Positions 1 to 8,511 are shown, numbered from the stretch's first letter. The stretch is DNA of 60,496 bases from Candidatus Adlerbacteria bacterium RIFCSPLOWO2_01_FULL_51_16 (GCA_001775485.1 MEWX01000014.1:29479-89974), one strand, 5' to 3'. The notes: generated by a model from the letters alone, not told the origin. Program-made: numbers and translations.

Positions 1-31
1 CCAGACTGAATAGTCGGGTACCCTTTTTATT

Positions 32-667
32 ATGCAAAAGGCCCCAACCAAGCGGCAAAAAGACCTTCTTAGCGTGATATATAACTACCTTGCAAGTACC
101 GGCTACCCCCCCACTTTCGAAGAAATGCGTGAAAATCTTGGCGTATCGTCCAACCAGTCAATTGTCGACCTGCTAGAAAAGCTCCGCAAGGGCGGCTATA
201 TCAAGAAAGACAGCGGGGCTCGTAGCCATGCCATTCTCCAATTGGGGTATGTAGCAATTGGCCGCCCAGCGCTGGCTCCTGTCCTCGGCACGACTACGGC
301 AGGCCTTCCCGTTGAATCTATAGAGATTGCAGGGGAGTGGCGTTCTATATCCTCGGATGTCGCAAGATTTGTCGAGGATGTGTTTATGCTCAAGATATCA
401 GGTAATTCCATGATTAACGCAGGTATCGATGATGGCGACGCCGTACTAGTGCAGACAATGAAAGAATTTGTGTCAGGGGATATTGTCTTTGCAGAAATTG
501 GCGATGAGGGCACGGTCAAGCGGTTCATGTCGGAGGACAAGCCGCCCTATGTGTATCTCAAGCCAGAAAATCCAAACTATAAAAATATCCTTTTTACCGA
601 CGACATACGACTCAAAGGCAAGGTCATCTCTGTGCTGAAGAGCGAACGTTGGCAGTCGGTAAAATAA
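32..667 (+). CDS. lexA: LexA-type repressor (winged-helix DNA-binding domain + S24 self-cleaving peptidase domain)
   Basis: 211-aa ORF. LexA-like N-terminus (KRQKDLLSVIYNYLASTGYPPTFEEM), candidate Ala-Gly cleavage site (TTAGLPV), catalytic Ser (GNSMINAGI) and Lys (GTVKRF) in canonical order. Confidence 0.85.
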   Translation: MQKAPTKRQKDLLSVIYNYLASTGYPPTFEEMRENLGVSSNQSIVDLLEKLRKGGYIKKDSGARSHAILQLGYVAIGRPALAPVLGTTTAGLPVESIEIAGEWRSISSDVARFVEDVFMLKISGNSMINAGIDDGDAVLVQTMKEFVSGDIVFAEIGDEGTVKRFMSEDKPPYVYLKPENPNYKNILFTDDIRLKGKVISVLKSERWQSVK

Positions 668-669
668 CT

Positions 670-2616
670 ATGGTTACAAAGAAACCAAATCGCACAGAAG
701 AGATTATCGGGAAAATCTTTCGTGATACCGAAATGGCGTTCGGTCTGAAAGAGTTCGAAGGTATCGACATATACAAAGTCCTTGAAATTACGGAGGAGGA
801 AAAAGATCGCTACTACCTTAAAGATCTAAAATCCGGCAAATCACGGTTTGTGTTCGACGAGAAGAAAGGCACCGGTAAGCCAGAAGAAATCGTACGCCAG
901 CTTTGGCTCCATAAACTTAACGTGCACTACAAATATCCGCTTGACCGCATGGATACAGAAAAAGATATTCACTTCGGGCGCGAGATACACAGCAAGGCGG
1001 TGGACATTGTGGTCTATAAGAAGGACAAAATCACACCGTACATTCTCGTGGAGGTGAAAGCGCCGAGTGAAAGCAAAGGGATTGATCAAATGAAGGGATA
1101 TCTGAACGCAGAAGGCTCGGAAATCGGTGTCTGGTCCAATGGCAGAAAGCGAGTCATTCTCTACCGTCCGTATCCGAAAGAGTTTGATGATACGTTGCCG
1201 GATCTGCCTACGGCCGACAAAACAATAGATGATCTACTTGAGTCTAAAAAGACTTATTTTGAGTACACAACTACAAAGGTAAGTCTCAAAGACACCGTCG
1301 AGTCCATGGAAGAATTGGTGCTTGCGAACTCGGGCGACGATGTATTTACTGAAGTCTTTAAGCTAGTTTACGCGAAGCTCTACGATGAACAAGAGGCAAA
1401 ATTACATAGACCAGACAGCGAAGTTTTTTTCCGAAAATATCGCGATCCAGCGAAGACCTATGCAGTAATCAATGAACTTTTCAAGAAAGCGATAAAACGA
1501 TGGCCGGGGACATTCTACGACCAAGAGAATATAAATCTTTCGGCTGAACATCTTTCTATTGTCGTGGGCGAATTGGAGAGGACGCGTCTTTTCGGATCCG
1601 ATCTTTCCATTATTGACGAAGCGTTTGAACATCTTATTCCGGAGGTGGCAAAGGGGAAAAAGGGCCAATATTTCACTCCACGACACGTCATCGGGATGGC
1701 GGTGAAAATGCTTGATCCGAAGGCAGGCGAGTATGTGATTGACCCTGCGGCGGGTTCCGGCGGCTTTTTGATCGGTGCGATGTATTGGGCGAAGGAAAAG
1801 CACCTGCGAGGCTCGGAAGAAGCAATGCGCGAATACGCAAAAGATTATATTTGGGGAATCGATTTTGCAGAGGAAATCTCAAAAGTGTCCCGTGCCTTAA
1901 TGCTTATCGCGGGGGATGGGCGCTCCCATTTGTTCAAGCTCAATTCTCTTGATTCGCGCGAATGGCAGGGCGAGGATGCCCAGTTGCTCGATGCGCGCTC
2001 CAAATTACAGACGCGACTTCTTGATATGAGGTCGAGCGCGGACAACGCCGAGAACAAGAAGACCTTTCACTACATGAACTTCGACGTCTTGCTGACGAAC
2101 CCGCCGTTTGCAGGTGAGATAAAAGACCAAGGGCTTTTGCGCCAGTATTTCTTCGGCAAGAAAAAAGGAAAGCTCATCAATAAAATCGAGCGGCATATTC
2201 TCTTTATCGAACGCACACTCGACATGCTTCGCCCTGGCGGGCGAATGGCGATTGTTTTACCGCAGGGCGTACTTAACAACACCAACATGGAAAACGTACG
2301 TGAGTATCTTTTTGAGAAAGCTCGCATCCTCGCGGTGGTCGGGCTTCACGGCAACACCTTCAAGCCGCATACGGGTACCAAGACGAGTGTACTTTTCTTG
2401 CAGAAGTGGGGAGCCGAAGCGGGAGAACCGCAAAAGGACTATCCAATCTTTATGGCCGTCTCAAAAAAAGGAGGCAAAGATAATTCCGGCGATTATATCC
2501 ACAAGAAAGGCTCGAATGGAGAATATGTTCACGATACCAAAGGCCGCAAAGTCCTCGATCACGACCTCGACGAAATCGCGGACGGGTTCTTGAAATTTTT
2601 TGACGATAAAAAATAA
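670..2616 (+). CDS. hsdM: Type I R-M-like N6-adenine DNA methyltransferase (HsdM-like) fused to an N-terminal HsdR-N / PD-(D/E)xK-like domain
   Basis: Motif I VIDPAAGSGGFL and motif IV NPPFAG of gamma-class N6-MTases. The N-terminal ~190 aa carry DIVVYKK...ILVEVKAP, as in the HSDR_N domain. ATG at 670 lies 3 nt after the lexA stop; an in-frame TTG at 649 would overlap lexA. Confidence 0.8.
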   Translation: MVTKKPNRTEEIIGKIFRDTEMAFGLKEFEGIDIYKVLEITEEEKDRYYLKDLKSGKSRFVFDEKKGTGKPEEIVRQLWLHKLNVHYKYPLDRMDTEKDIHFGREIHSKAVDIVVYKKDKITPYILVEVKAPSESKGIDQMKGYLNAEGSEIGVWSNGRKRVILYRPYPKEFDDTLPDLPTADKTIDDLLESKKTYFEYTTTKVSLKDTVESMEELVLANSGDDVFTEVFKLVYAKLYDEQEAKLHRPDSEVFFRKYRDPAKTYAVINELFKKAIKRWPGTFYDQENINLSAEHLSIVVGELERTRLFGSDLSIIDEAFEHLIPEVAKGKKGQYFTPRHVIGMAVKMLDPKAGEYVIDPAAGSGGFLIGAMYWAKEKHLRGSEEAMREYAKDYIWGIDFAEEISKVSRALMLIAGDGRSHLFKLNSLDSREWQGEDAQLLDARSKLQTRLLDMRSSADNAENKKTFHYMNFDVLLTNPPFAGEIKDQGLLRQYFFGKKKGKLINKIERHILFIERTLDMLRPGGRMAIVLPQGVLNNTNMENVREYLFEKARILAVVGLHGNTFKPHTGTKTSVLFLQKWGAEAGEPQKDYPIFMAVSKKGGKDNSGDYIHKKGSNGEYVHDTKGRKVLDHDLDEIADGFLKFFDDKK

Positions 2617-2620
2617 TTCC

Positions 2621-3337
2621 ATGTCGTCTTTAATAAACTCAATCAAATCTGTTAGAAAGGGCGTAGTTGCTATAGCTTATAAACAACACAACGTGCTCGA
2701 TAATTCTGATCAGATTTCTGTGGCAGGGACGGGATTTCTTTTTTCTAAAGAAAAGTTGCTGATCTGTACCTGTGCTCATGTTGTCGCACCTAATGGCATA
2801 CAGCGAACCGATGCACAGCTTCAGGTTGGAATTGTGACTGAAAGAAATGTTGTTGGATATCCAGCAAAAATAGTGAGTCTAGATTTCAAAAAAGACTTGG
2901 CCATACTTAATGTGCCATCGGGAGATCCAAAAGTCATAGCAACCTTGGAAGAATTGAAACTGGGAGATTCAAAGCCTCTTGAACAAGGCGAGGAAATAGG
3001 GTTTCTCGGTTTTCCTTTTGGAATGGTTCTCAGCAACGACATAACACCTTCTGCGGCAAAAGGTATAATCTCGGCATTCAGAAGAGATTTGACCACAGGT
3101 TCGACAGAACTGATACAGCTTGACGCTGTCGTGGGTGGAGGAAACAGTGGCGCTCCGGTTTTTCTTTCCTCAACATCAGAAGTCATTGCAATCGTAAAAG
3201 GGAGATTTGATCCGCTAATGAAGGGAAGGCCACCAAAATTAATAATTGATGGCGAACCTCTTGAAATTTTTACAAATATTGGCTTTGCACAGCCAATAAA
3301 TGTTGCCAAGGGCTTTTTGCTTTCCTCTCTAAAATGA
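2621..3337 (+). CDS. Trypsin-like (S1/chymotrypsin-fold) serine protease, no signal peptide
   Basis: Catalytic triad contexts in order: CTCAHVV (His), KKDLAILNV (Asp), GGGNSGAPVF (Ser). The hydrophilic N-terminus MSSLINSIKSVRKG has no TM segment or signal peptide. ATG at 2621 lies 5 nt after the hsdM stop (alternative TTG at 2600). The stop overlaps the hsdS ATG (ATGA at 3334-3337). Confidence 0.75.
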   Translation: MSSLINSIKSVRKGVVAIAYKQHNVLDNSDQISVAGTGFLFSKEKLLICTCAHVVAPNGIQRTDAQLQVGIVTERNVVGYPAKIVSLDFKKDLAILNVPSGDPKVIATLEELKLGDSKPLEQGEEIGFLGFPFGMVLSNDITPSAAKGIISAFRRDLTTGSTELIQLDAVVGGGNSGAPVFLSSTSEVIAIVKGRFDPLMKGRPPKLIIDGEPLEIFTNIGFAQPINVAKGFLLSSLK

Positions 3338-4704
3338 TTGCTTATTCCGTAATCTCAAAGTCCCAACTTGAAGGCACAAGGCGGCTCGATGCTGAATATT
3401 ATCAGCCGGAATATTTGGAAATTGTGCAGAAAATCCAGTCTGTTCCGCATACGTCTTTGGATAGTTATGCAGAGAAAGTATTTAGCGGACCTTTCGGATC
3501 AACCCTCAAAAGTGAGTCATATCAAGAAACAGGAGTCCCGTTTATTAGAATCAGCGACATATCTGATCTCTTCATCGATCAAGACACTCTAGTTTTTATT
3601 TCGCCGAGTGAACACAAACGAATTTATAGCACCCATTTGAGTGTTGGGGATATAGTTTTATCCAAAATCGGGACAGTTGGAAGGTTGTCGGTGATTTCTG
3701 AAGAACTTGGGGAGGTAAACATCAGCGAGAACAATATCGGAATTAGATTATCAAAACTTCCTGAAGAAAAAAAGATAGCACTACTCTTTCTACTACTTGG
3801 TAAATACGGTCAAAAGCAGCTCCTAAGGAAAGCAAGCGGCAACATTCAGCTTAAACTAAACGTTAGCGATGTTGAGTCTATACAAGTACCGATTTTCGAT
3901 GAGGTGATGCTGCGAGCACTAATGGATATTTATACAGATTTCTTGTCAAAAAGAAATGAGAGCGACTCTCTTTACTTACAAGCCGAGAATCTACTCTTGG
4001 AAAAATTGGGACTCAAAAATTTCAAGGCCGATGAAGATTTGTACAGCGTTGTGAATTTCTCGAATATAAAATCGGCGAATCGGATGGATGCCGAATACTT
4101 TCAGCCGAAGTACGAGAGACTCATTGTTAAACTTAAAGCACAAAAGGCGCAGCCGTTGGTAGATGTACTGGAGAGTATATCGGCGAAATTTAATCCGCTG
4201 ACCCAAGCAGATAAAATTTTTAAGTATGTTGAGCTTTCAAATATCAACGGCTCCATAGGGATAATCGATGGTTATACAGAAACATCGGGAAGAGAGGCAC
4301 CAAGTCGGGCGAAGCGCGTTTTAAAAAAAGGCGATGTCGTCGTTTCAACGGTTGAAGGATCGCTTGGTAAGGTTGCACTTGTTCATAAAGAACAGGAGGG
4401 GTGCCTGGCGTCGACGGGTTTTTTTCAATTCAGAAGCGAGGATTTGTTGCCGGAAGTATTGTTAGTGATTGCCAAAAGCTTTATTTTTCACAATCAGCTT
4501 GAACAGCGTTGCGCGGGCACTATTTTGACCGCGGTGCCGAAGGATAGCATCAAAGATATTCTTGTGCCGATTTTGCCGAAAGCAACGCAGGAGAAAATTG
4601 CCGGCCTGGTTCGTGAATCGCATACCGCACGCAAAAAGGCAAAAGAACTTTTAGAAGAGGCCAAGCGCACGGTCGAAGAATTCATAGAGCAGAAAACAAA
4701 ATAA
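3334..4704 (+). CDS. hsdS: Type I restriction-modification specificity subunit HsdS (two target-recognition domains)
   Basis: 456 aa. Duplicated HsdS half-repeat signatures RLDAEYYQPEY (N-terminal half) and RMDAEYFQPKY (second half). C-terminal helical region KKAKELLEEAKRTVEEFI. Confidence 0.85.
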   Translation: MIAYSVISKSQLEGTRRLDAEYYQPEYLEIVQKIQSVPHTSLDSYAEKVFSGPFGSTLKSESYQETGVPFIRISDISDLFIDQDTLVFISPSEHKRIYSTHLSVGDIVLSKIGTVGRLSVISEELGEVNISENNIGIRLSKLPEEKKIALLFLLLGKYGQKQLLRKASGNIQLKLNVSDVESIQVPIFDEVMLRALMDIYTDFLSKRNESDSLYLQAENLLLEKLGLKNFKADEDLYSVVNFSNIKSANRMDAEYFQPKYERLIVKLKAQKAQPLVDVLESISAKFNPLTQADKIFKYVELSNINGSIGIIDGYTETSGREAPSRAKRVLKKGDVVVSTVEGSLGKVALVHKEQEGCLASTGFFQFRSEDLLPEVLLVIAKSFIFHNQLEQRCAGTILTAVPKDSIKDILVPILPKATQEKIAGLVRESHTARKKAKELLEEAKRTVEEFIEQKTK

Positions 4705-4747
4705 GCGAGTGGAAACTTGGGGGATTTGGGGTTGATTGTAAAGAAAG

Positions 4748-5044
4748 ATGAGTTTAATACTGAAGCGGCCCAGTGCGTGGGTGCCGATTGCATTGTCGCT
4801 CGCCATGCTGGCGTTCATCCTTATTCTCCTTGGCGTATACGGTGTTCCTACCCCCGACCCCAATGCAGATGAGGGGACAGCCGCGCACCTCTTTCAGCTC
4901 TGGTTGGTTTTAGAAATATTTTTGGTGGCATTTTTTGCAATCAAGTGGCTCCCACGCGCTCCGGGGCCGGCATTCCTCGTTCTAGTGGTCCAAATCGCCG
5001 CCGCCCTCGCCGCCTGCGCCCCCGTCTTCCTCCTCCACCTCTAA
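4748..5044 (+). CDS. Small integral membrane protein (about 3 TM segments)
   Basis: 98-aa ORF with three long hydrophobic stretches. No recognisable family. Confidence 0.5.
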   Translation: MSLILKRPSAWVPIALSLAMLAFILILLGVYGVPTPDPNADEGTAAHLFQLWLVLEIFLVAFFAIKWLPRAPGPAFLVLVVQIAAALAACAPVFLLHL

Positions 5045-5071
5045 CCACAGAATTATCGCCCCCCACCCATC

Positions 5072-5347
5072 ATTCTAGCTTTTTGCAAAAAGCTGTAATA
5101 GCTCAATAATCATCCAAATTACCCGTCCACCTTTTCACCCCGCATTCTTTAAGGCCCCCACCCCCCTCCCTTATTTTTTAACGCATCAGCTCTTATTCTA
5201 GTGTTTTGCAAAACACTGCAATAGCCCAATAATCACCCAAATCACTAATCTACTTTTTCACCCCGTATTCTTTAAGGCCCCCACTCCCCTCCCTTATTTT
5301 TTAACGCATCAGCTCTTATTCTAGTATTTTGCAAAACACTGCAATAG
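5072..5347. repeat. 123-bp tandem repeat, 2.25 copies, each unit starting with the 30-bp palindromic element
   Basis: ATTCTAG... element starts at 5072, 5195 and 5318 (period exactly 123 nt). Units are near-identical (…ttcaccccgNattctttaaggccccca…cccttattttttaacgcatcagctctt). Confidence 0.9.
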
Positions 5348-5365
5348 GGAATATACTGCGCGCAT

Positions 5366-5641
5366 ATGGCCACACCAAACTATCGGGCGCTGGAGCGCAT
5401 TGTAAAGGGATTTGCCAATCATCGGCGCTTGCAAATCCTCGATCTGCTCAAGAGGGAACCGGAACTCTCGGTTGCCGATATTGCGGAGCGGTTGAATATC
5501 GGGTATGAAAACACCTCCGACCATATCCGAAAAATGGCCATAGCCGGCCTTCTTCTCAAACGCAACCAAGGCCCTGCCGTACTCCATAAACTCACACCCC
5601 GCGCCGAAGCTATTCTAGTGTTTTGCAAAAAACTGCAATAG
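5366..5641 (+). CDS. ArsR/SmtB-family winged-helix transcriptional regulator (paralog 1)
   Basis: 91 aa. HRRLQILDLLKREPELSVADIAERL...SDHIRKMAIAGLLLKR matches the ArsR HTH_5 pattern; no metal-binding CxC in helix 3. The last 9 codons plus TAG are encoded by palindromic element copy D. Confidence 0.8.
   Translation: MATPNYRALERIVKGFANHRRLQILDLLKREPELSVADIAERLNIGYENTSDHIRKMAIAGLLLKRNQGPAVLHKLTPRAEAILVFCKKLQ
5612..5641. repeat. 30-bp palindromic element, copy D (inside the 3' end of ArsR paralog 1)
   Basis: attctagtgttttgcaaaaaactgcaatag. Same element as at 5072, 5195, 5318, 13686, 13980 and 57556. Confidence 0.9.
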
Positions 5642-5709
5642 CGAACAAAATGCAGTGGAAACGGCCATTTGATATACTTACAACCTTAACCTTCTAATCA
5701 AAAATATAT

Positions 5710-6093
5710 ATGGCTAAATATGTTGATGGGTTTGTATTGGTAGTGCCTAAGAGCAAGATTGCGGCCTACCGCACAATGGCTGCTGCCGGGGCGAGGATGT
5801 GGAAGAAACATGGCGCCCTCGACTACAAGGAGTGCATAGGAGACGACCTCAACCCCCATATGGGTGGGATGCCAGCGCTCACATTTCCGAAGTTGGTTAA
5901 GCTCAAAAAGGGCGAGACGGTGGCTTTCTCTTACATTGTGTACAAAAGCCGTGCGCACCGAGACCAAGTTAATAAAAAGGTGATGGCACAAATGGATAAA
6001 GAGTATAAGGGCAAGAAGATGCCGCCCATGCCCTTTGATATGAAGCGCATGGCCTACGGCGGCTTTAAAGTCATCGTCAGCGCAGGAAAATAG
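5710..6093 (+). CDS. DUF1428-family protein
   Basis: 127 aa. The N-terminus MAKYVDGFVLVVPKSKIAAYRTMA...KHGALDYKEC is typical of the DUF1428 (YbaA-like) family. Confidence 0.7.
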   Translation: MAKYVDGFVLVVPKSKIAAYRTMAAAGARMWKKHGALDYKECIGDDLNPHMGGMPALTFPKLVKLKKGETVAFSYIVYKSRAHRDQVNKKVMAQMDKEYKGKKMPPMPFDMKRMAYGGFKVIVSAGK

Positions 6094-6146: not shown

Positions 6147-7025
6147 ATGAAAACCGCCCTTATTGCCATCGTTCTTATAGTCATAGTCGGTGCAGGCATT
6201 TATTTCGTTCCTAAATATTTTTCCGGCCCCGCGGGGCAGGAGCAACCTACTCCACCCGTGACTGAACAGGCAACTACAACGGAGCGGGCGGCCGTAGAAG
6301 CAATCGGCAAATCCGTTGAAGAGCGCGATATCACCGCATACCACTACGGCACCGGCGAAACGGAACTTCTGTTTGTCGGCGGTATCCACGGCGGATACTC
6401 ATGGAACACGGTACTCGTCGCCTACGAACTCATGGACTACTTGGCGGCAAACCCGGGCGCTATCCCCGAGAATATAACGGTAACGGTTATCCCGGTTTTG
6501 AATCCGGACGGCCTCAACAAAATTGTCGGCACTGCAGGCCGCTTTGAAGCTTCTGATGTTCCGCAAGGATCAACCGTATCGGGCCGCTTCAACGCAAACA
6601 ATGTAGACCTCAACCGCAACTTTGATTGTGAATGGCAGGCAAGTGGTACATGGCAAAACACAAAAGTAAGCGGCGGGAGCAAGGCGTTTTCCGAGCCGGA
6701 GAGTGCTGCCATCAAAGCCTTTATAGAGGCGCACAAACCGAGCGCGGCAATTGTCTGGTACAGCGCCGCAGGCGGAGTATTTGCTTCAAACTGCAACGAG
6801 GGCGTTTTGCCCGAAACGCTCGCCCTCACCAATGCGTATGCAAAAGCATCCGGCTACAAGGCCTACGAGACCTTCGACTTCTACAGCATCACCGGCGACA
6901 TGGTGAACTGGTTTGCAAAACTGGAAATCCCCGCAATCAGCGTTCTCCTCACCAACCACACGGATATAGAGTGGGAAAAGAATCTCAAAGGTATCGAGGC
7001 GCTTCTGAAAGAGTACGCCGAGTAA
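6147..7025 (+). CDS. Secreted M14-like (zinc carboxypeptidase fold) protein, catalytically degenerate paralog
   Basis: N-terminal TM/signal segment. GGIHGG, NPDG and NANNVDLNRNFDCEW blocks are shared with the downstream paralog, but it has S, Y and L where the paralog has the E, H and E expected for M14 catalysis (IHGGYSWN, IVWYSAAG, ISVLLTN). Confidence 0.7.
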   Translation: MKTALIAIVLIVIVGAGIYFVPKYFSGPAGQEQPTPPVTEQATTTERAAVEAIGKSVEERDITAYHYGTGETELLFVGGIHGGYSWNTVLVAYELMDYLAANPGAIPENITVTVIPVLNPDGLNKIVGTAGRFEASDVPQGSTVSGRFNANNVDLNRNFDCEWQASGTWQNTKVSGGSKAFSEPESAAIKAFIEAHKPSAAIVWYSAAGGVFASNCNEGVLPETLALTNAYAKASGYKAYETFDFYSITGDMVNWFAKLEIPAISVLLTNHTDIEWEKNLKGIEALLKEYAE

Positions 7026-7032
7026 ATTTGTT

Positions 7033-7890
7033 ATGGGCAAGTGGGGAGTCATCACCTTGCTCGCGCTTGCTGTGGTGCTTGCGGCGGGTGCGTTTGCATT
7101 TGTGCGCCTCTCTCAGATAGAGCCGCAGGTGCTACTTGCACCAAGCGAGGTGAAGACGGAAATAGTCGGCACATCGGTTGAGGGCCGCGCAATTACCGCC
7201 TACTCCTTCGGCCAGGGTGAGACGGTACTGCTTTTTGTCGGCGGAATACATGGCGGGTATGAATGGAACAGCACACTTCTTGCGTATCAGTTTATAGATT
7301 ATCTAAAAGCAAATCCGAAAGTCATTCCCCCAAATCTCACGATCGCCGTCATTCCGTCTGCTAACCCCGACGGTCTCCATGTGGTAACCGGTGCGGAAGG
7401 TCGCTTTGCCGCCGCAGACATCCCCGCACAGACAACAACGGTGCCGGGCCGCTTCAATGCAAACAATGTAGACCTCAACCGGAACTTTGATTGCAAATGG
7501 AAACCCGAGAGCATGTGGCGGGGAGAGGTGGTGAGCGCTGGGTCGGCGGCGTTTTCCGAACCGGAAGCGCGGGCTATCAGGTACTTCGTTTGGAATCACG
7601 ATCCGAGCGCCGTCGTTTTTTGGCACAGCCAATCAAACGCGGTGTATGCATCCGAGTGCGAAGAGGGGATTCTGCCAAGCACGCGTGCGGTTATGAACGC
7701 GTATGCGACTGCCTCCGGCTACCCGGCGGTCGACTCCTTTGATGCCTACGAGATCACGGGTGATGCCGAGGGGTGGCTCGCTTCCATACATATCCCCGCT
7801 ATTACCGTAGAGCTTAAAACCCACGAGGATGTCGAGTGGGAGCGCAACCTCGCCGGCGTCACCGCACTCTTTAATTTGTATAAAAAATAA
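7033..7890 (+). CDS. Secreted M14-family zinc carboxypeptidase-like protein
   Basis: N-terminal TM/signal segment. IHGGYEWN (His...Glu), NVDLNRNF (Asn-Arg substrate-binding block), FWHSQSN (second zinc His) and ITVELKT (catalytic Glu context). Confidence 0.75.
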   Translation: MGKWGVITLLALAVVLAAGAFAFVRLSQIEPQVLLAPSEVKTEIVGTSVEGRAITAYSFGQGETVLLFVGGIHGGYEWNSTLLAYQFIDYLKANPKVIPPNLTIAVIPSANPDGLHVVTGAEGRFAAADIPAQTTTVPGRFNANNVDLNRNFDCKWKPESMWRGEVVSAGSAAFSEPEARAIRYFVWNHDPSAVVFWHSQSNAVYASECEEGILPSTRAVMNAYATASGYPAVDSFDAYEITGDAEGWLASIHIPAITVELKTHEDVEWERNLAGVTALFNLYKK

Positions 7891-7906
7891 ATGATATAAT
7901 TTGACC

Positions 7907-8044
7907 ATGGATATCATCATTAATTTTTTGCAGATGGTGCTCGGGTTTTTGCTCCAGCTCATAACGCTTATCATCGGTTTCTTTATTTCCGTTCTCAACC
8001 TCATTTTGAACTTCGCTCGCGCTCTTGTCTCTACTGTTCTCTAA
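7907..8044 (+). CDS. Possible 45-aa hydrophobic peptide
   Basis: ATG-to-TAA ORF below the track cutoff (MDIIINFLQMVLGFLLQLITLIIGFFISVLNLILNFARALVSTVL). TATAAT at 7894-7899 lies just upstream. No homology evidence. Confidence 0.25.
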   Translation: MDIIINFLQMVLGFLLQLITLIIGFFISVLNLILNFARALVSTVL

Positions 8045-8088
8045 CCCCACGGTGGTAAGATTTACATATAGGATGCGTCAATAAAAAT

Positions 8089-8511
8089 ATGAAAACTACA
8101 TCCGTGGTCTTGATTTTTGTTGTAGCTGTGGCCGCTCTCGTGGGGGTGTGGCTGTTTTTGAGCGGCACTCCTGTGGGAGAAAGTTTTCTCCCCGCAAACC
8201 AAGGGGGAGAAAACCCGCCGAACTCCGCCGGGGGCGCCCCGCCGGGCTCTATACATAATCTTCCTCTGCCTCCCGCGGTTGCTGCCGCCAAGGCACGCGC
8301 CGCGGCGGATGCAAACACAACCGAAGACAAAATTTTTATTGAAACTGCCTACGAGCGCGAGTGGCCGGATGGCTGTTTGGGGCTTGCCGGTGCCGGCGAA
8401 TTTTGTACACAAGCTCTTGTCCCGGGCTGGGAGGTGACGGTTATGGTCGGCGGCGAGACCCGCGTCTACCGCACAAATATTGACGGCACAGTTATCCGCC
8501 GCGCTTCGTGA
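8089..8511 (+). CDS. Secreted/anchored hypothetical protein
   Basis: 140 aa. N-terminal TM segment, Pro/Ala/Gly-rich linker, Cys-containing C-terminal domain. Its stop overlaps the next ORF start. Confidence 0.5.
   Translation: MKTTSVVLIFVVAVAALVGVWLFLSGTPVGESFLPANQGGENPPNSAGGAPPGSIHNLPLPPAVAAAKARAAADANTTEDKIFIETAYEREWPDGCLGLAGAGEFCTQALVPGWEVTVMVGGETRVYRTNIDGTVIRRAS

Follow-up and report, generated by a model that had tools for sequence, protein, structure and literature searches.

Gene content and organization of the locus

We analyzed a stretch of 60,496 nucleotides from Candidatus Adlerbacteria bacterium RIFCSPLOWO2_01_FULL_51_16 (MEWX01000014.1:29479-89974, here referred to as the window and numbered from its first base) and focused on the operon at its 5' end, in which a lexA gene is followed by genes for a putative fused restriction nuclease-methylase (RM), a serine protease and a specificity subunit (S). 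All four genes lie on the plus strand. The first, lexA (32..667), encodes a LexA repressor of 211 amino acids (aa) and stops with TAA at 665-667; RM (670..2616, 648 aa) runs from the ATG at 670 to the TAA at 2614-2616; the protease gene (2621..3337, 238 aa) ends in ATGA at 3334-3337, where its stop overlaps the start of S; and S (3334..4704, 456 aa) stops with TAA at 4702-4704. Also within the window is the 3' part of the lexA promoter (1..31, plus strand), with a predicted operator at 1-18, a -10-like hexamer TACCCT at 19-24 and 7 nucleotides (nt) from there to the ATG. Pfam matches of the four products were, in order, LexA_DNA_bind and Peptidase_S24, HSDR_N_2 and N6_Mtase, Trypsin_2, and Methylase_S. 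An initial annotation of this DNA had described four packed genes forming one operon and had anticipated these domains; our coordinates and junctions agree with it exactly, the genes do form one operon, and the domains were recovered, with the nuclease part scored as HSDR_N_2. Scans for internal promoters and terminators in the operon gave nothing above shuffled expectation. The same operon recurs in independent loci with differing flanking genes, and the arrangement is therefore not a product of chance.

We then looked for the translocase of a type I restriction-modification (R-M) system. No SNF2/DEAD/ResIII protein is encoded in the 60-kb window, whose other large open reading frames specify RNase J, GroEL, MurJ, LepA, LeuRS, TsaD, GyrA and solute-binding proteins. 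In L001 and L003, longer assemblies that include this locus, no hsdR is present within 7.4 kb 5' of lexA, which answers a question that the initial annotation had raised, and no HsdR adjoins the cassette in 10 sister cassettes. A type I system with its hsdR just beyond the window edge is thereby ruled out, the longer contigs and the window both lacking the gene.

The RM and S subunits

In RM, Pfam placed HSDR_N_2 at aa 71-180 (1.7e-20) and N6_Mtase at aa 314-604 (1.9e-34). The former corresponds to a predicted PD-(D/E)xK nuclease domain (880..1209), and the latter to a methyltransferase domain (1609..2481) with the SAM motif DPAAGSGGF at 1741-1767 and the catalytic motif NPPF at 2098-2109. The catalytic candidates of the nuclease are E97 (codon 958-960), D112 (1003-1005), E128 (1051-1053) and K130 (1057-1059), and this quartet is invariant in 8 cassette RMs as well as in 24 database homologs. 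In BsaXI, mutagenesis has shown E73, D90, E105 and K107 to be essential for cleavage, and these residues are conserved across type IIB enzymes (PMC11997821). The spacing of the E-D-E-K residues is 15/16/2 in RM versus 17/15/2 in BsaXI, the correspondence being set by motif and spacing, not by residue-level structural superposition.

Both sequence and fold comparisons put RM next to the same enzyme. In the PDB, RM.BsaXI is the closest entry by sequence (3.4e-29), every type I HsdM protein ranking below it, and Foldseek ranked BsaXI first (4e-15), then DrdV and BpuSI, all of them fused nuclease-methylases, before the HsdMs. The AlphaFold2 (AF2) model of full-length RM is poor (predicted TM-score, pTM, 0.36), and only the topology of the N-terminal domain and the ranking of the hits were used from it; that domain is modelled with an alpha-beta3-alpha-beta topology and a per-residue confidence (pLDDT) of 79-91 at aa 31-100, lower beyond. 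A linker at about aa 166-205 is predicted to be disordered. In PADLOC, RM matches MTase_I (2.5e-166) and S matches Specificity_I over its full length (3.2e-40), while the TIGR00497 hsdM score of RM is only 37 bits against a cut-off of 242.75. Moreover, of 22 distant RM homologs from viral contigs (37-45% identity), most (about 17) have S immediately after RM and carry neither a slot gene nor a neighbouring LexA gene, which indicates that RM and S are self-sufficient.

As judged from these comparisons, the "methylase" is a restriction nuclease and a gamma-class N6-adenine methyltransferase in one chain, of a type IIB-like kind. RM and S would thus be a complete type IIB-like system that needs no HsdR translocase; this assignment is made from sequence and fold, and two-sided cleavage is a property of the characterised type IIB enzymes. 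The initial annotation had read the operon as type I-like without a visible HsdR. That reading has to be given up: RM carries a nuclease of its own, with the invariant quartet and with BsaXI as best PDB match by sequence and by fold, and the "missing HsdR" is explained by the HSDR_N_2 domain of RM itself being the nuclease.

The S subunit (Methylase_S, 5.7e-10) has two target-recognition domains (TRDs) and conserved spacer regions. Its N-terminal, central and C-terminal conserved regions are common to the window and the sister cassettes L011, L062, L065, L067, L014 and L029, and the TRDs are mosaic among loci: L011 shares TRD1 with the window (about 70% identity) and not TRD2, while L065 and L067 share TRD2 (52-75%) and not TRD1. 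This pattern of identity points to active shuffling of TRDs, and so of specificity, within the cassette family.

LexA and its promoter

The LexA of the window combines a winged-helix DNA-binding domain (PF01726) with an S24 self-cleaving domain (PF00717), scores above the NCBIfam equivalog cut-off (TIGR00498, 144.8 versus 110.95 bits) and matches the LexA annotated for Candidatus Adlerbacteria RIFCSPLOWO2_01_FULL_51_16 at 100% identity. It falls in a large Patescibacteria clade of high sequence conservation. In 11 cassette LexAs the Ala-Gly cleavage site and the Ser/Lys dyad are invariant; they correspond to A84-G85, S119 and K156 of Escherichia coli LexA.

All 11 lexA-headed loci share one promoter plan, namely TTGAC, an operator of the form CCnGAC(T/C)nnwTAGTC(G/A)G (in another rendering CCnGAMYnWWTAGTCRG), TAnAnT, about 7 nt, and ATG. 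Each locus has a single operator, which is placed between its -35 and -10 hexamers and ends 12-15 nt 5' of the lexA ATG (11/11). In the window it reads CCAGACTGAATAGTCGGG (1-18), with the core palindrome GACT-N4-AGTC at 4-15 and with TAGTCGGG invariant; the -35 hexamer TTGACT falls just outside the window on its 5' side. A search of the window and the fetched loci, in which no recA or uvr genes are present, found no second copy elsewhere in the 60 kb, and in the fetched loci, too, the operator stands only at lexA. We interpret this conserved imperfect palindrome as the predicted LexA operator of the gene's own promoter, to which LexA would bind. In addition, the -10-like hexamer ends 6-8 nt before the lexA ATG in all 11 loci, leaving no room for a Shine-Dalgarno sequence, and the operon mRNA is therefore probably leaderless.

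An element resembling a DnaA box (consensus AGTTATCCACA) was seen about 9-10 nt 5' of the lexA -35 hexamer in 8 of the 11 loci; in L001 it occupies 7358-7366, shortly before the point where the window begins. L062 and L013 match the consensus exactly, and six others (L001, L065, L067, L101, L011 and L029) differ from it at 1-2 positions. The element could link cassette expression to replication status, or could bind another factor.

The protease

The slot gene encodes a trypsin-type serine protease (Trypsin_2, 2.9e-22) with the triad H53 in CAHVV (2771-2785), D92 in DLAIL (2894-2908) and S176 in GNSGAP (3140-3157), invariant in 13/13 family members. We found in it no signal peptide, transmembrane-like segment or hydrophobic N-terminus (maximum Kyte-Doolittle 19-residue mean 1.16), and Pfam gave no PDZ match in the 238-aa protein, which ends with the protease domain. 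The intact triad and the cytoplasmic location noted in the initial annotation are thus borne out. The AF2 model (pTM 0.79) has its best PDB folds in Deg1, DegP, DegQ, HTRA1 and DegS-deltaPDZ (Foldseek, TMq about 0.67, E about 1e-13, 24-26% identity), while the cut-offs of all HtrA/DegP/DegS equivalogs are missed widely (for example 68.5 versus 416 bits). Its best PADLOC matches, RT-Protease class XI (7e-16) and LmuA (2e-7), are both protease effector domains.

One loop sets the family apart. Residues 196-220 (3206-3280) are family-specific and nearly invariant (F196, D197, P198, G202, P205, G211, P213 and T218-G221), and they form the only long low-confidence stretch of the model (pLDDT <50); this loop is a candidate regulatory or partner-binding element. 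The family is very small. A profile search of 1.84e9 representatives returned 2 clusters above 380 bits before scores dropped to 144 bits, a scan of species-representative genomes with the protease profile returned only 2 true members, and a metagenome scan returned 5 close members, one of them already known, the remainder being generic HtrA-like proteins.

A widespread cassette with a swappable slot

We collected LexA genes along two routes, seven through the protease and four as LexA homologs (71-83% identical) picked blind to gene context, the length of the contig deciding in three cases and the number of contigs in one. All 11 head an R-M operon. Moreover, each of the four blind-picked homologs heads an operon of the order LexA-RM-X-S, where X is the gene in the slot between RM and S, and their flanks are unrelated: clpP/tig, a transposase, trmD, and a DpnII-type R-M system with a zeta toxin. 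Across loci the cassette is flanked by NERD, clpP/tig, transposase, trmD, murJ or tspO genes. The RM clade yielded more than 7,300 matches, and its top 120 clusters are 76-94% identical, come from many lineages and candidate phyla of Patescibacteria and bear no annotation beyond "N-6 DNA methylase" or "type I M protein". Taken by these comparisons, LexA-RM-X-S is a widespread and horizontally mobile cassette of Patescibacteria. The layout, for which the initial annotation had known of no described system, is not a one-off but one variant of a very common cassette, and its protease is replaceable.

The exchange shows in a comparison of the window with L062. Their RM proteins are 94% identical, yet the two DNAs cease to be homologous where RM stops (about 2598) and become so again only where S starts (3334). 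The occupants differ between loci. A protease is found in the window, L014, L015 and L026; a protease together with a 206-aa RnlA-toxin-like protein in L011; a 211-aa RnlA-toxin-like protein alone in L101; a 281-aa soluble, nuclease-like protein with a D..ECK motif in L062; a 271-aa protein with two transmembrane helices, a coiled coil and a zinc ribbon in L065; a 369-aa coiled-coil/transmembrane protein in L067; and an LPD3-like 160-aa protein with a 147-aa transmembrane protein in L029, where the protease comes after S. Both RnlA-like proteins (L011 and L101) conserve YRHTPAHF with an Rx4H HEPN-type motif. The non-protease slot proteins had no significant match in Pfam, PADLOC or PHROGs, and their roles are consequently read from motifs. 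Slot X thus presents itself, from the alignments, as a swappable position.

Two further observations concern insertions in these operons. In L062 a 149-aa protein with two predicted transmembrane helices is encoded between lexA and RM (7640-8089), which marks a second insertion point. The 160-aa protein, with a weak sub-threshold LPD3 match, is 52% identical between L029 (type IIB-like; 4573-5055) and L017 (type III-like; 5263-5748), and both loci lie just 3' of typA/bipA; this gene may be a second mobile R-M accessory gene.

Distribution and phylogeny of the protease

Linkage of protease homologs to hsd genes was the key test among those listed in the initial annotation, and its outcome is positive. 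Among 13 distinct protease loci, 12 are informative in that neighbouring genes are visible, and all 12 lie inside R-M operons, of at least four kinds. Six are of the type IIB-like RM-S kind, four have an N6_N4 type II methyltransferase whose partner is an HNH, IceA/NlaIII-like or unknown 322-aa protein, one is type III-like with Mod/Res (L017), and one has a D12-class methyltransferase. LexA heads 7 of the 8 protease loci with a visible 5' end, the exception being the type III-like L017. Neither LexA and protease as an obligatory pair nor a fixed place of the protease between M and S holds: the former is ruled out by the protease-less LexA cassettes (L062, L065, L067 and L101) and the LexA-less L017, and the latter by L029, where the protease follows S, and by L013, L020 and L017.

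The protease tree is decoupled from R-M type and from LexA and RM. The nearest relative of the window protease (66%) is in a type II operon, and close pairs span R-M types, namely L015 (RM-S) with L020 (type II, HNH) at 76% and L029 (RM-S) with L028 (type II, IceA-like) at 84%. The LexA and RM of the window are closest to those of the protease-less L062 (83% and 94%), and those of other protease cassettes are 58-61% and 59-70% identical. The tree and these LexA/RM relationships mark the protease gene as a mobile accessory that is specialised for R-M operons, and not as the co-evolving partner of one enzyme. It is strongly supported that the protease is cytoplasmic, HtrA-like, catalytically intact and restricted to R-M operons; it is probably independent of contact with any particular R-M enzyme.

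Surroundings of the cassette

The island has a GC content of 40-49%, compared with 51-63% in its flanks. Its GC-poor part 5' of lexA (L001 4623-7324) contains an HTH_17-Fic pair, DUF1905, a NERD protein (4e-31) and an unknown 183-aa protein. Neighbours related to defence or toxin-antitoxin (TA) functions also accompany other cassettes: a DpnII R-M system and zeta toxin in L101, two PDDEXK_1/Cas4-like genes in L014, and DUF4145 with SduA_C in L011.

On the 3' side of the operon, a 123-bp tandem repeat (2.2 copies, 89% match) occupies the intergenic positions 5072-5347, between a small transmembrane open reading frame (4748-5044) and an ArsR/MarR-like helix-turn-helix (HTH) gene (5366-5641). A sigma-70-like TTGCAA-N16/17-AATAAT is present in every unit. 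Assemblies of the same organism seem to differ in copy number: S and the HTH gene are 662 nt apart in the window, L001, L004, L005 and L006, and 539 nt apart in L002, exactly one 123-bp unit fewer. Further 3' (6147-7890), and unrelated to the cassette, lies a tandem pair of paralogous Peptidase_M14 (carboxypeptidase-like) genes, whose products both begin with a hydrophobic segment.

A proposed function and its alternatives

Our best explanation is that the locus is a LexA-autoregulated type IIB-like R-M cassette with an interchangeable second-line effector, and we give this reading as a whole an about even chance of being right. Its parts deserve different weight: the architecture and the cassette are highly probable, while the effector role of the slot gene and of the protease is tentative and falls slightly short of even. 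LexA, bound to an operator recognised by its conservation and overlapping its own promoter, would keep the four-gene operon low. RM and the two-TRD S would assemble as (RM)2S, which by homology to BsaXI and BcgI would methylate host sites and cut unmodified DNA. Breaks or single-stranded DNA arising from infection or restriction would activate RecA and trigger self-cleavage of LexA, whose cleavage site and dyad are intact, and the whole operon would be derepressed. The protease would then act as an abortive-infection-type effector that degrades host or phage proteins upon the expression surge or an infection cue. This last step is suggested by the diversity of the slot, whose alternatives in other cassettes are HEPN-RNase-like, membrane and nuclease-like proteins, and by similarity to protease effectors of other defence systems. 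By analogy, the toxin-like look of the other occupants, the PADLOC matches and the precedents of PrrC and RptR/DarTG2 are consistent with an effector.

Several points weigh against this reading. The labels "nuclease-like" and "toxin-like" come from short motifs, hydrophobicity and below-threshold Pfam matches, such as RnlA-toxin_DBD at 24.6 bits versus a cut-off of 27 for the L011 protein and a match described as weak for L101. The occupants form a small sample from 10 independent cassettes, and the slot could be a mere recombination hotspot with functionally unrelated cargo. The model of full-length RM has low confidence, with its pTM of 0.36. Should the organism have no other LexA, this one would be its housekeeping SOS repressor, for which "cassette regulator" is an incomplete description; LexA gating is also not universal, given that the L017 protease locus has no adjacent LexA. 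As to the protease, its toxicity, a substrate and a mode of activation are suppositions of this model, and its basal co-translation with RM implies that it is harmless at low level and that an activation step is needed.

A different role for the protease would be that of a regulator, which either cleaves LexA as a RecA-independent inducer or trims restriction by cutting the RM linker or degrading separate restriction endonucleases, with alleviation after DNA damage as the outcome. Such parallels are familiar: CapP cleaves CapH, ImmA cleaves ImmR, DegS cleaves RseA, and restriction alleviation for EcoKI HsdR is the job of ClpXP. The LexA at the head of 7 of 8 protease loci would fit this role, as would the DegS-type fold match, HtrA-type proteases being classically activated by allostery and cleaving regulators. 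The RM linker predicted to be disordered at about aa 166-205 might offer a cutting site, and the conserved unplaced loop (aa 196-220) could bind a partner. Furthermore, proteolytic control of restriction is established in type I systems (PMC12707154, PMC4231737). However, LexA-headed cassettes exist without the protease (L062, L065, L067 and L101), LexA keeps its own self-cleavage machinery, and L017 has the protease without LexA. Where another protein takes the place of the protease, it has the look of a toxin and not of a regulator, and the nucleases of the protease loci have unrelated folds (PD-(D/E)xK fusion, HNH, IceA-like and Res helicase), which makes it unlikely that one small protease recognises them all. 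We regard a regulator as unlikely. The same holds, at a comparable level of doubt, for the protease as an autonomous hitchhiker in a recombination hotspot or safe harbour, co-transcribed and with no functional tie to LexA or the R-M enzyme; such a gene could serve defence on its own or have some other role. The sharp boundaries of the slot swaps, a protease phylogeny decoupled from every neighbour, and a surrounding defence/TA-like island with Fic, NERD, Zeta toxin, Shedu-like and Cas4-like neighbours all speak for it, and the authors of the RptR study suggested R-M embedding sites as recombination hotspots (PMC12255303). Yet an independent gene would be expected outside R-M systems too, and all 12 informative loci are inside, with reading frames that usually overlap or nearly do so. 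The triad conservation in 13/13 members reflects selection on catalysis and fits an effector and a hitchhiker alike.

The initial annotation had proposed a guard of the PrrC kind, in which the protease would be held inactive by the M2S complex, here (RM)2S, and freed when a phage anti-restriction protein inhibits the complex. In 5 loci the protease gene is placed between RM and S and is translationally coupled, which argues for it, and so does the RnlA-toxin-like protein with an Rx4H HEPN-type motif in the slot of L011 and L101; Rx4H is the motif class of the PrrC nuclease domain. The precedent is that of PrrC itself (PMC12707154). Against such a guard, the family also occurs in operons without S or a gamma-class methyltransferase (N6_N4 with HNH, with an IceA-like or with an unknown partner, D12, and type III-like Mod/Res), the protease lies after S in L029, and the closest protease relatives are in different R-M types. 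A specific inhibitory interface would be hard to maintain under these circumstances, and we consider this explanation very unlikely. The claim that the M2S complex holds the protease in check is thus not supported, as members of the family also sit in type II and type III-like operons, which lack an M2S. The analogy with PrrC is only partly retained: the RnlA-toxin-like, membrane or nuclease-like proteins in the slot of sister cassettes favour it indirectly, whereas control by the complex is unlikely.

Extending the effector reading, we may imagine a two-layer immunity of Patescibacteria, in which restriction damage removes LexA and licenses a suicide or backup effector, the protease being a hitherto unrecognised R-M-dedicated class moved between type IIB-like, type II and type III-like operons. 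We hold this extension to be less likely than not. In a more radical version, the protease would sense a phage cue and cleave LexA, which would give reduced-genome bacteria a RecA-independent induction of defence.

Novelty and significance

R-M operons with embedded accessory defence genes and with a first-gene repressor are known already. What is new is the LexA head, the type IIB-like core, the slot between RM and S, and the protease as its occupant. In the literature that was searched we found no LexA-headed R-M operon, no link between LexA and R-M in Patescibacteria/Candidate Phyla Radiation, no R-M-embedded trypsin/HtrA-like protease and nothing relevant on PDC-M35; a comprehensive R-M review of 2025 makes no mention of LexA.

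If the interpretation is right, complete LexA-controlled type IIB-like systems would lie behind thousands of Patescibacteria genes that carry the annotation "N-6 DNA methylase" or "type I M protein". Our view of the defences available to this large and mostly uncultured radiation, where CRISPR is reported to be uncommon, would have to change. A new regulatory link would connect the SOS repressor directly with R-M expression. The slot would be a source of new effectors through guilt by embedding, most of its occupants having no known domains, and the components dedicated to R-M would come to include free-standing HtrA-like proteases, whose links to abortive infection or restriction alleviation could be tested. 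With 4 genes in 4.7 kb, the system is small enough for heterologous tests to be feasible.

Comparison with known systems

Among protein families of defence, MAD2 and MAD5 of the multi-gene methylation-associated defence system (MADS) are distantly homologous to RM (304 bits) and S (151 bits), respectively, and the domain order is the same. Membership in MADS is ruled out by the scores (304 versus 720 bits for MAD2 and 151 versus 400 bits for MAD5) and by the operon having no further defence-like genes; general scans, none of them aimed at the MAD1, MAD3, MAD4 or MAD6-8 profiles, found no recognisable defence domains after S. The protease resembles HtrA, DegS and DegP in protease-domain fold, triad and a C-terminal GFAIP-type motif, but differs in having no PDZ domain, signal peptide or membrane anchor, from which a cytoplasmic location follows, and in having a conserved 25-residue loop after the catalytic Ser. 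With RT-Protease class XI (UG/Abi) and Lamassu LmuA it has in common a trypsin-fold serine protease tied to a defence system; those proteases are fused to or paired with reverse transcriptases (RT) or SMC-like sensors, whereas the window protease is free-standing and its matches to them are weak and cover only the domain.

The R-M part is like type I systems in its gamma-class N6-adenine methylase and two-TRD S, and unlike them in having no HsdR. The closer likeness is to the type IIB systems BcgI and BsaXI, which also join an N-terminal PD-(D/E)xK domain and a gamma-class methylase (NPPF) in one chain, with a separate two-TRD S and no translocase. BsaXI is longer, 916 aa compared with 648 aa for RM, and the sequence match ends at RM residue 584, so that the C-terminal paddle implicated in BsaXI cleavage is apparently missing; BcgI A is of similar length to RM. 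The LexA head and the extra gene between RM and S set the cassette apart, neither having been found described for type IIB.

The embedding of an accessory gene has two precedents. PrrC is embedded in the type IC system EcoprrI (PMC12707154), and the likeness lies in a potentially toxic accessory gene inside an R-M operon and, for sister cassettes, in the RnlA-toxin-like slot protein with an Rx4H HEPN-type motif. The window differs in that its occupant is a Trypsin_2 serine protease only, without the ABC-ATPase-like and HEPN domains, and in that its host system is type IIB-like and not type I; allosteric masking in the manner of PrrC is disfavoured, with the protease family also found in type II and type III-like systems. 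The other precedent is a type I R-M system headed by RptR with an embedded DarTG2 (PMC12255303). In that island the module lies between hsdS and hsdR and the regulator is the 9-kDa RptR, whereas the Patescibacteria cassette holds a single gene between RM and S and is headed by a self-cleaving, DNA-damage-responsive S24 LexA. The two nevertheless share a first-gene repressor, which in the cassette would likewise act on its own promoter, an embedded and exchangeable defence module, and the conservation of regulator and site across many genomes.

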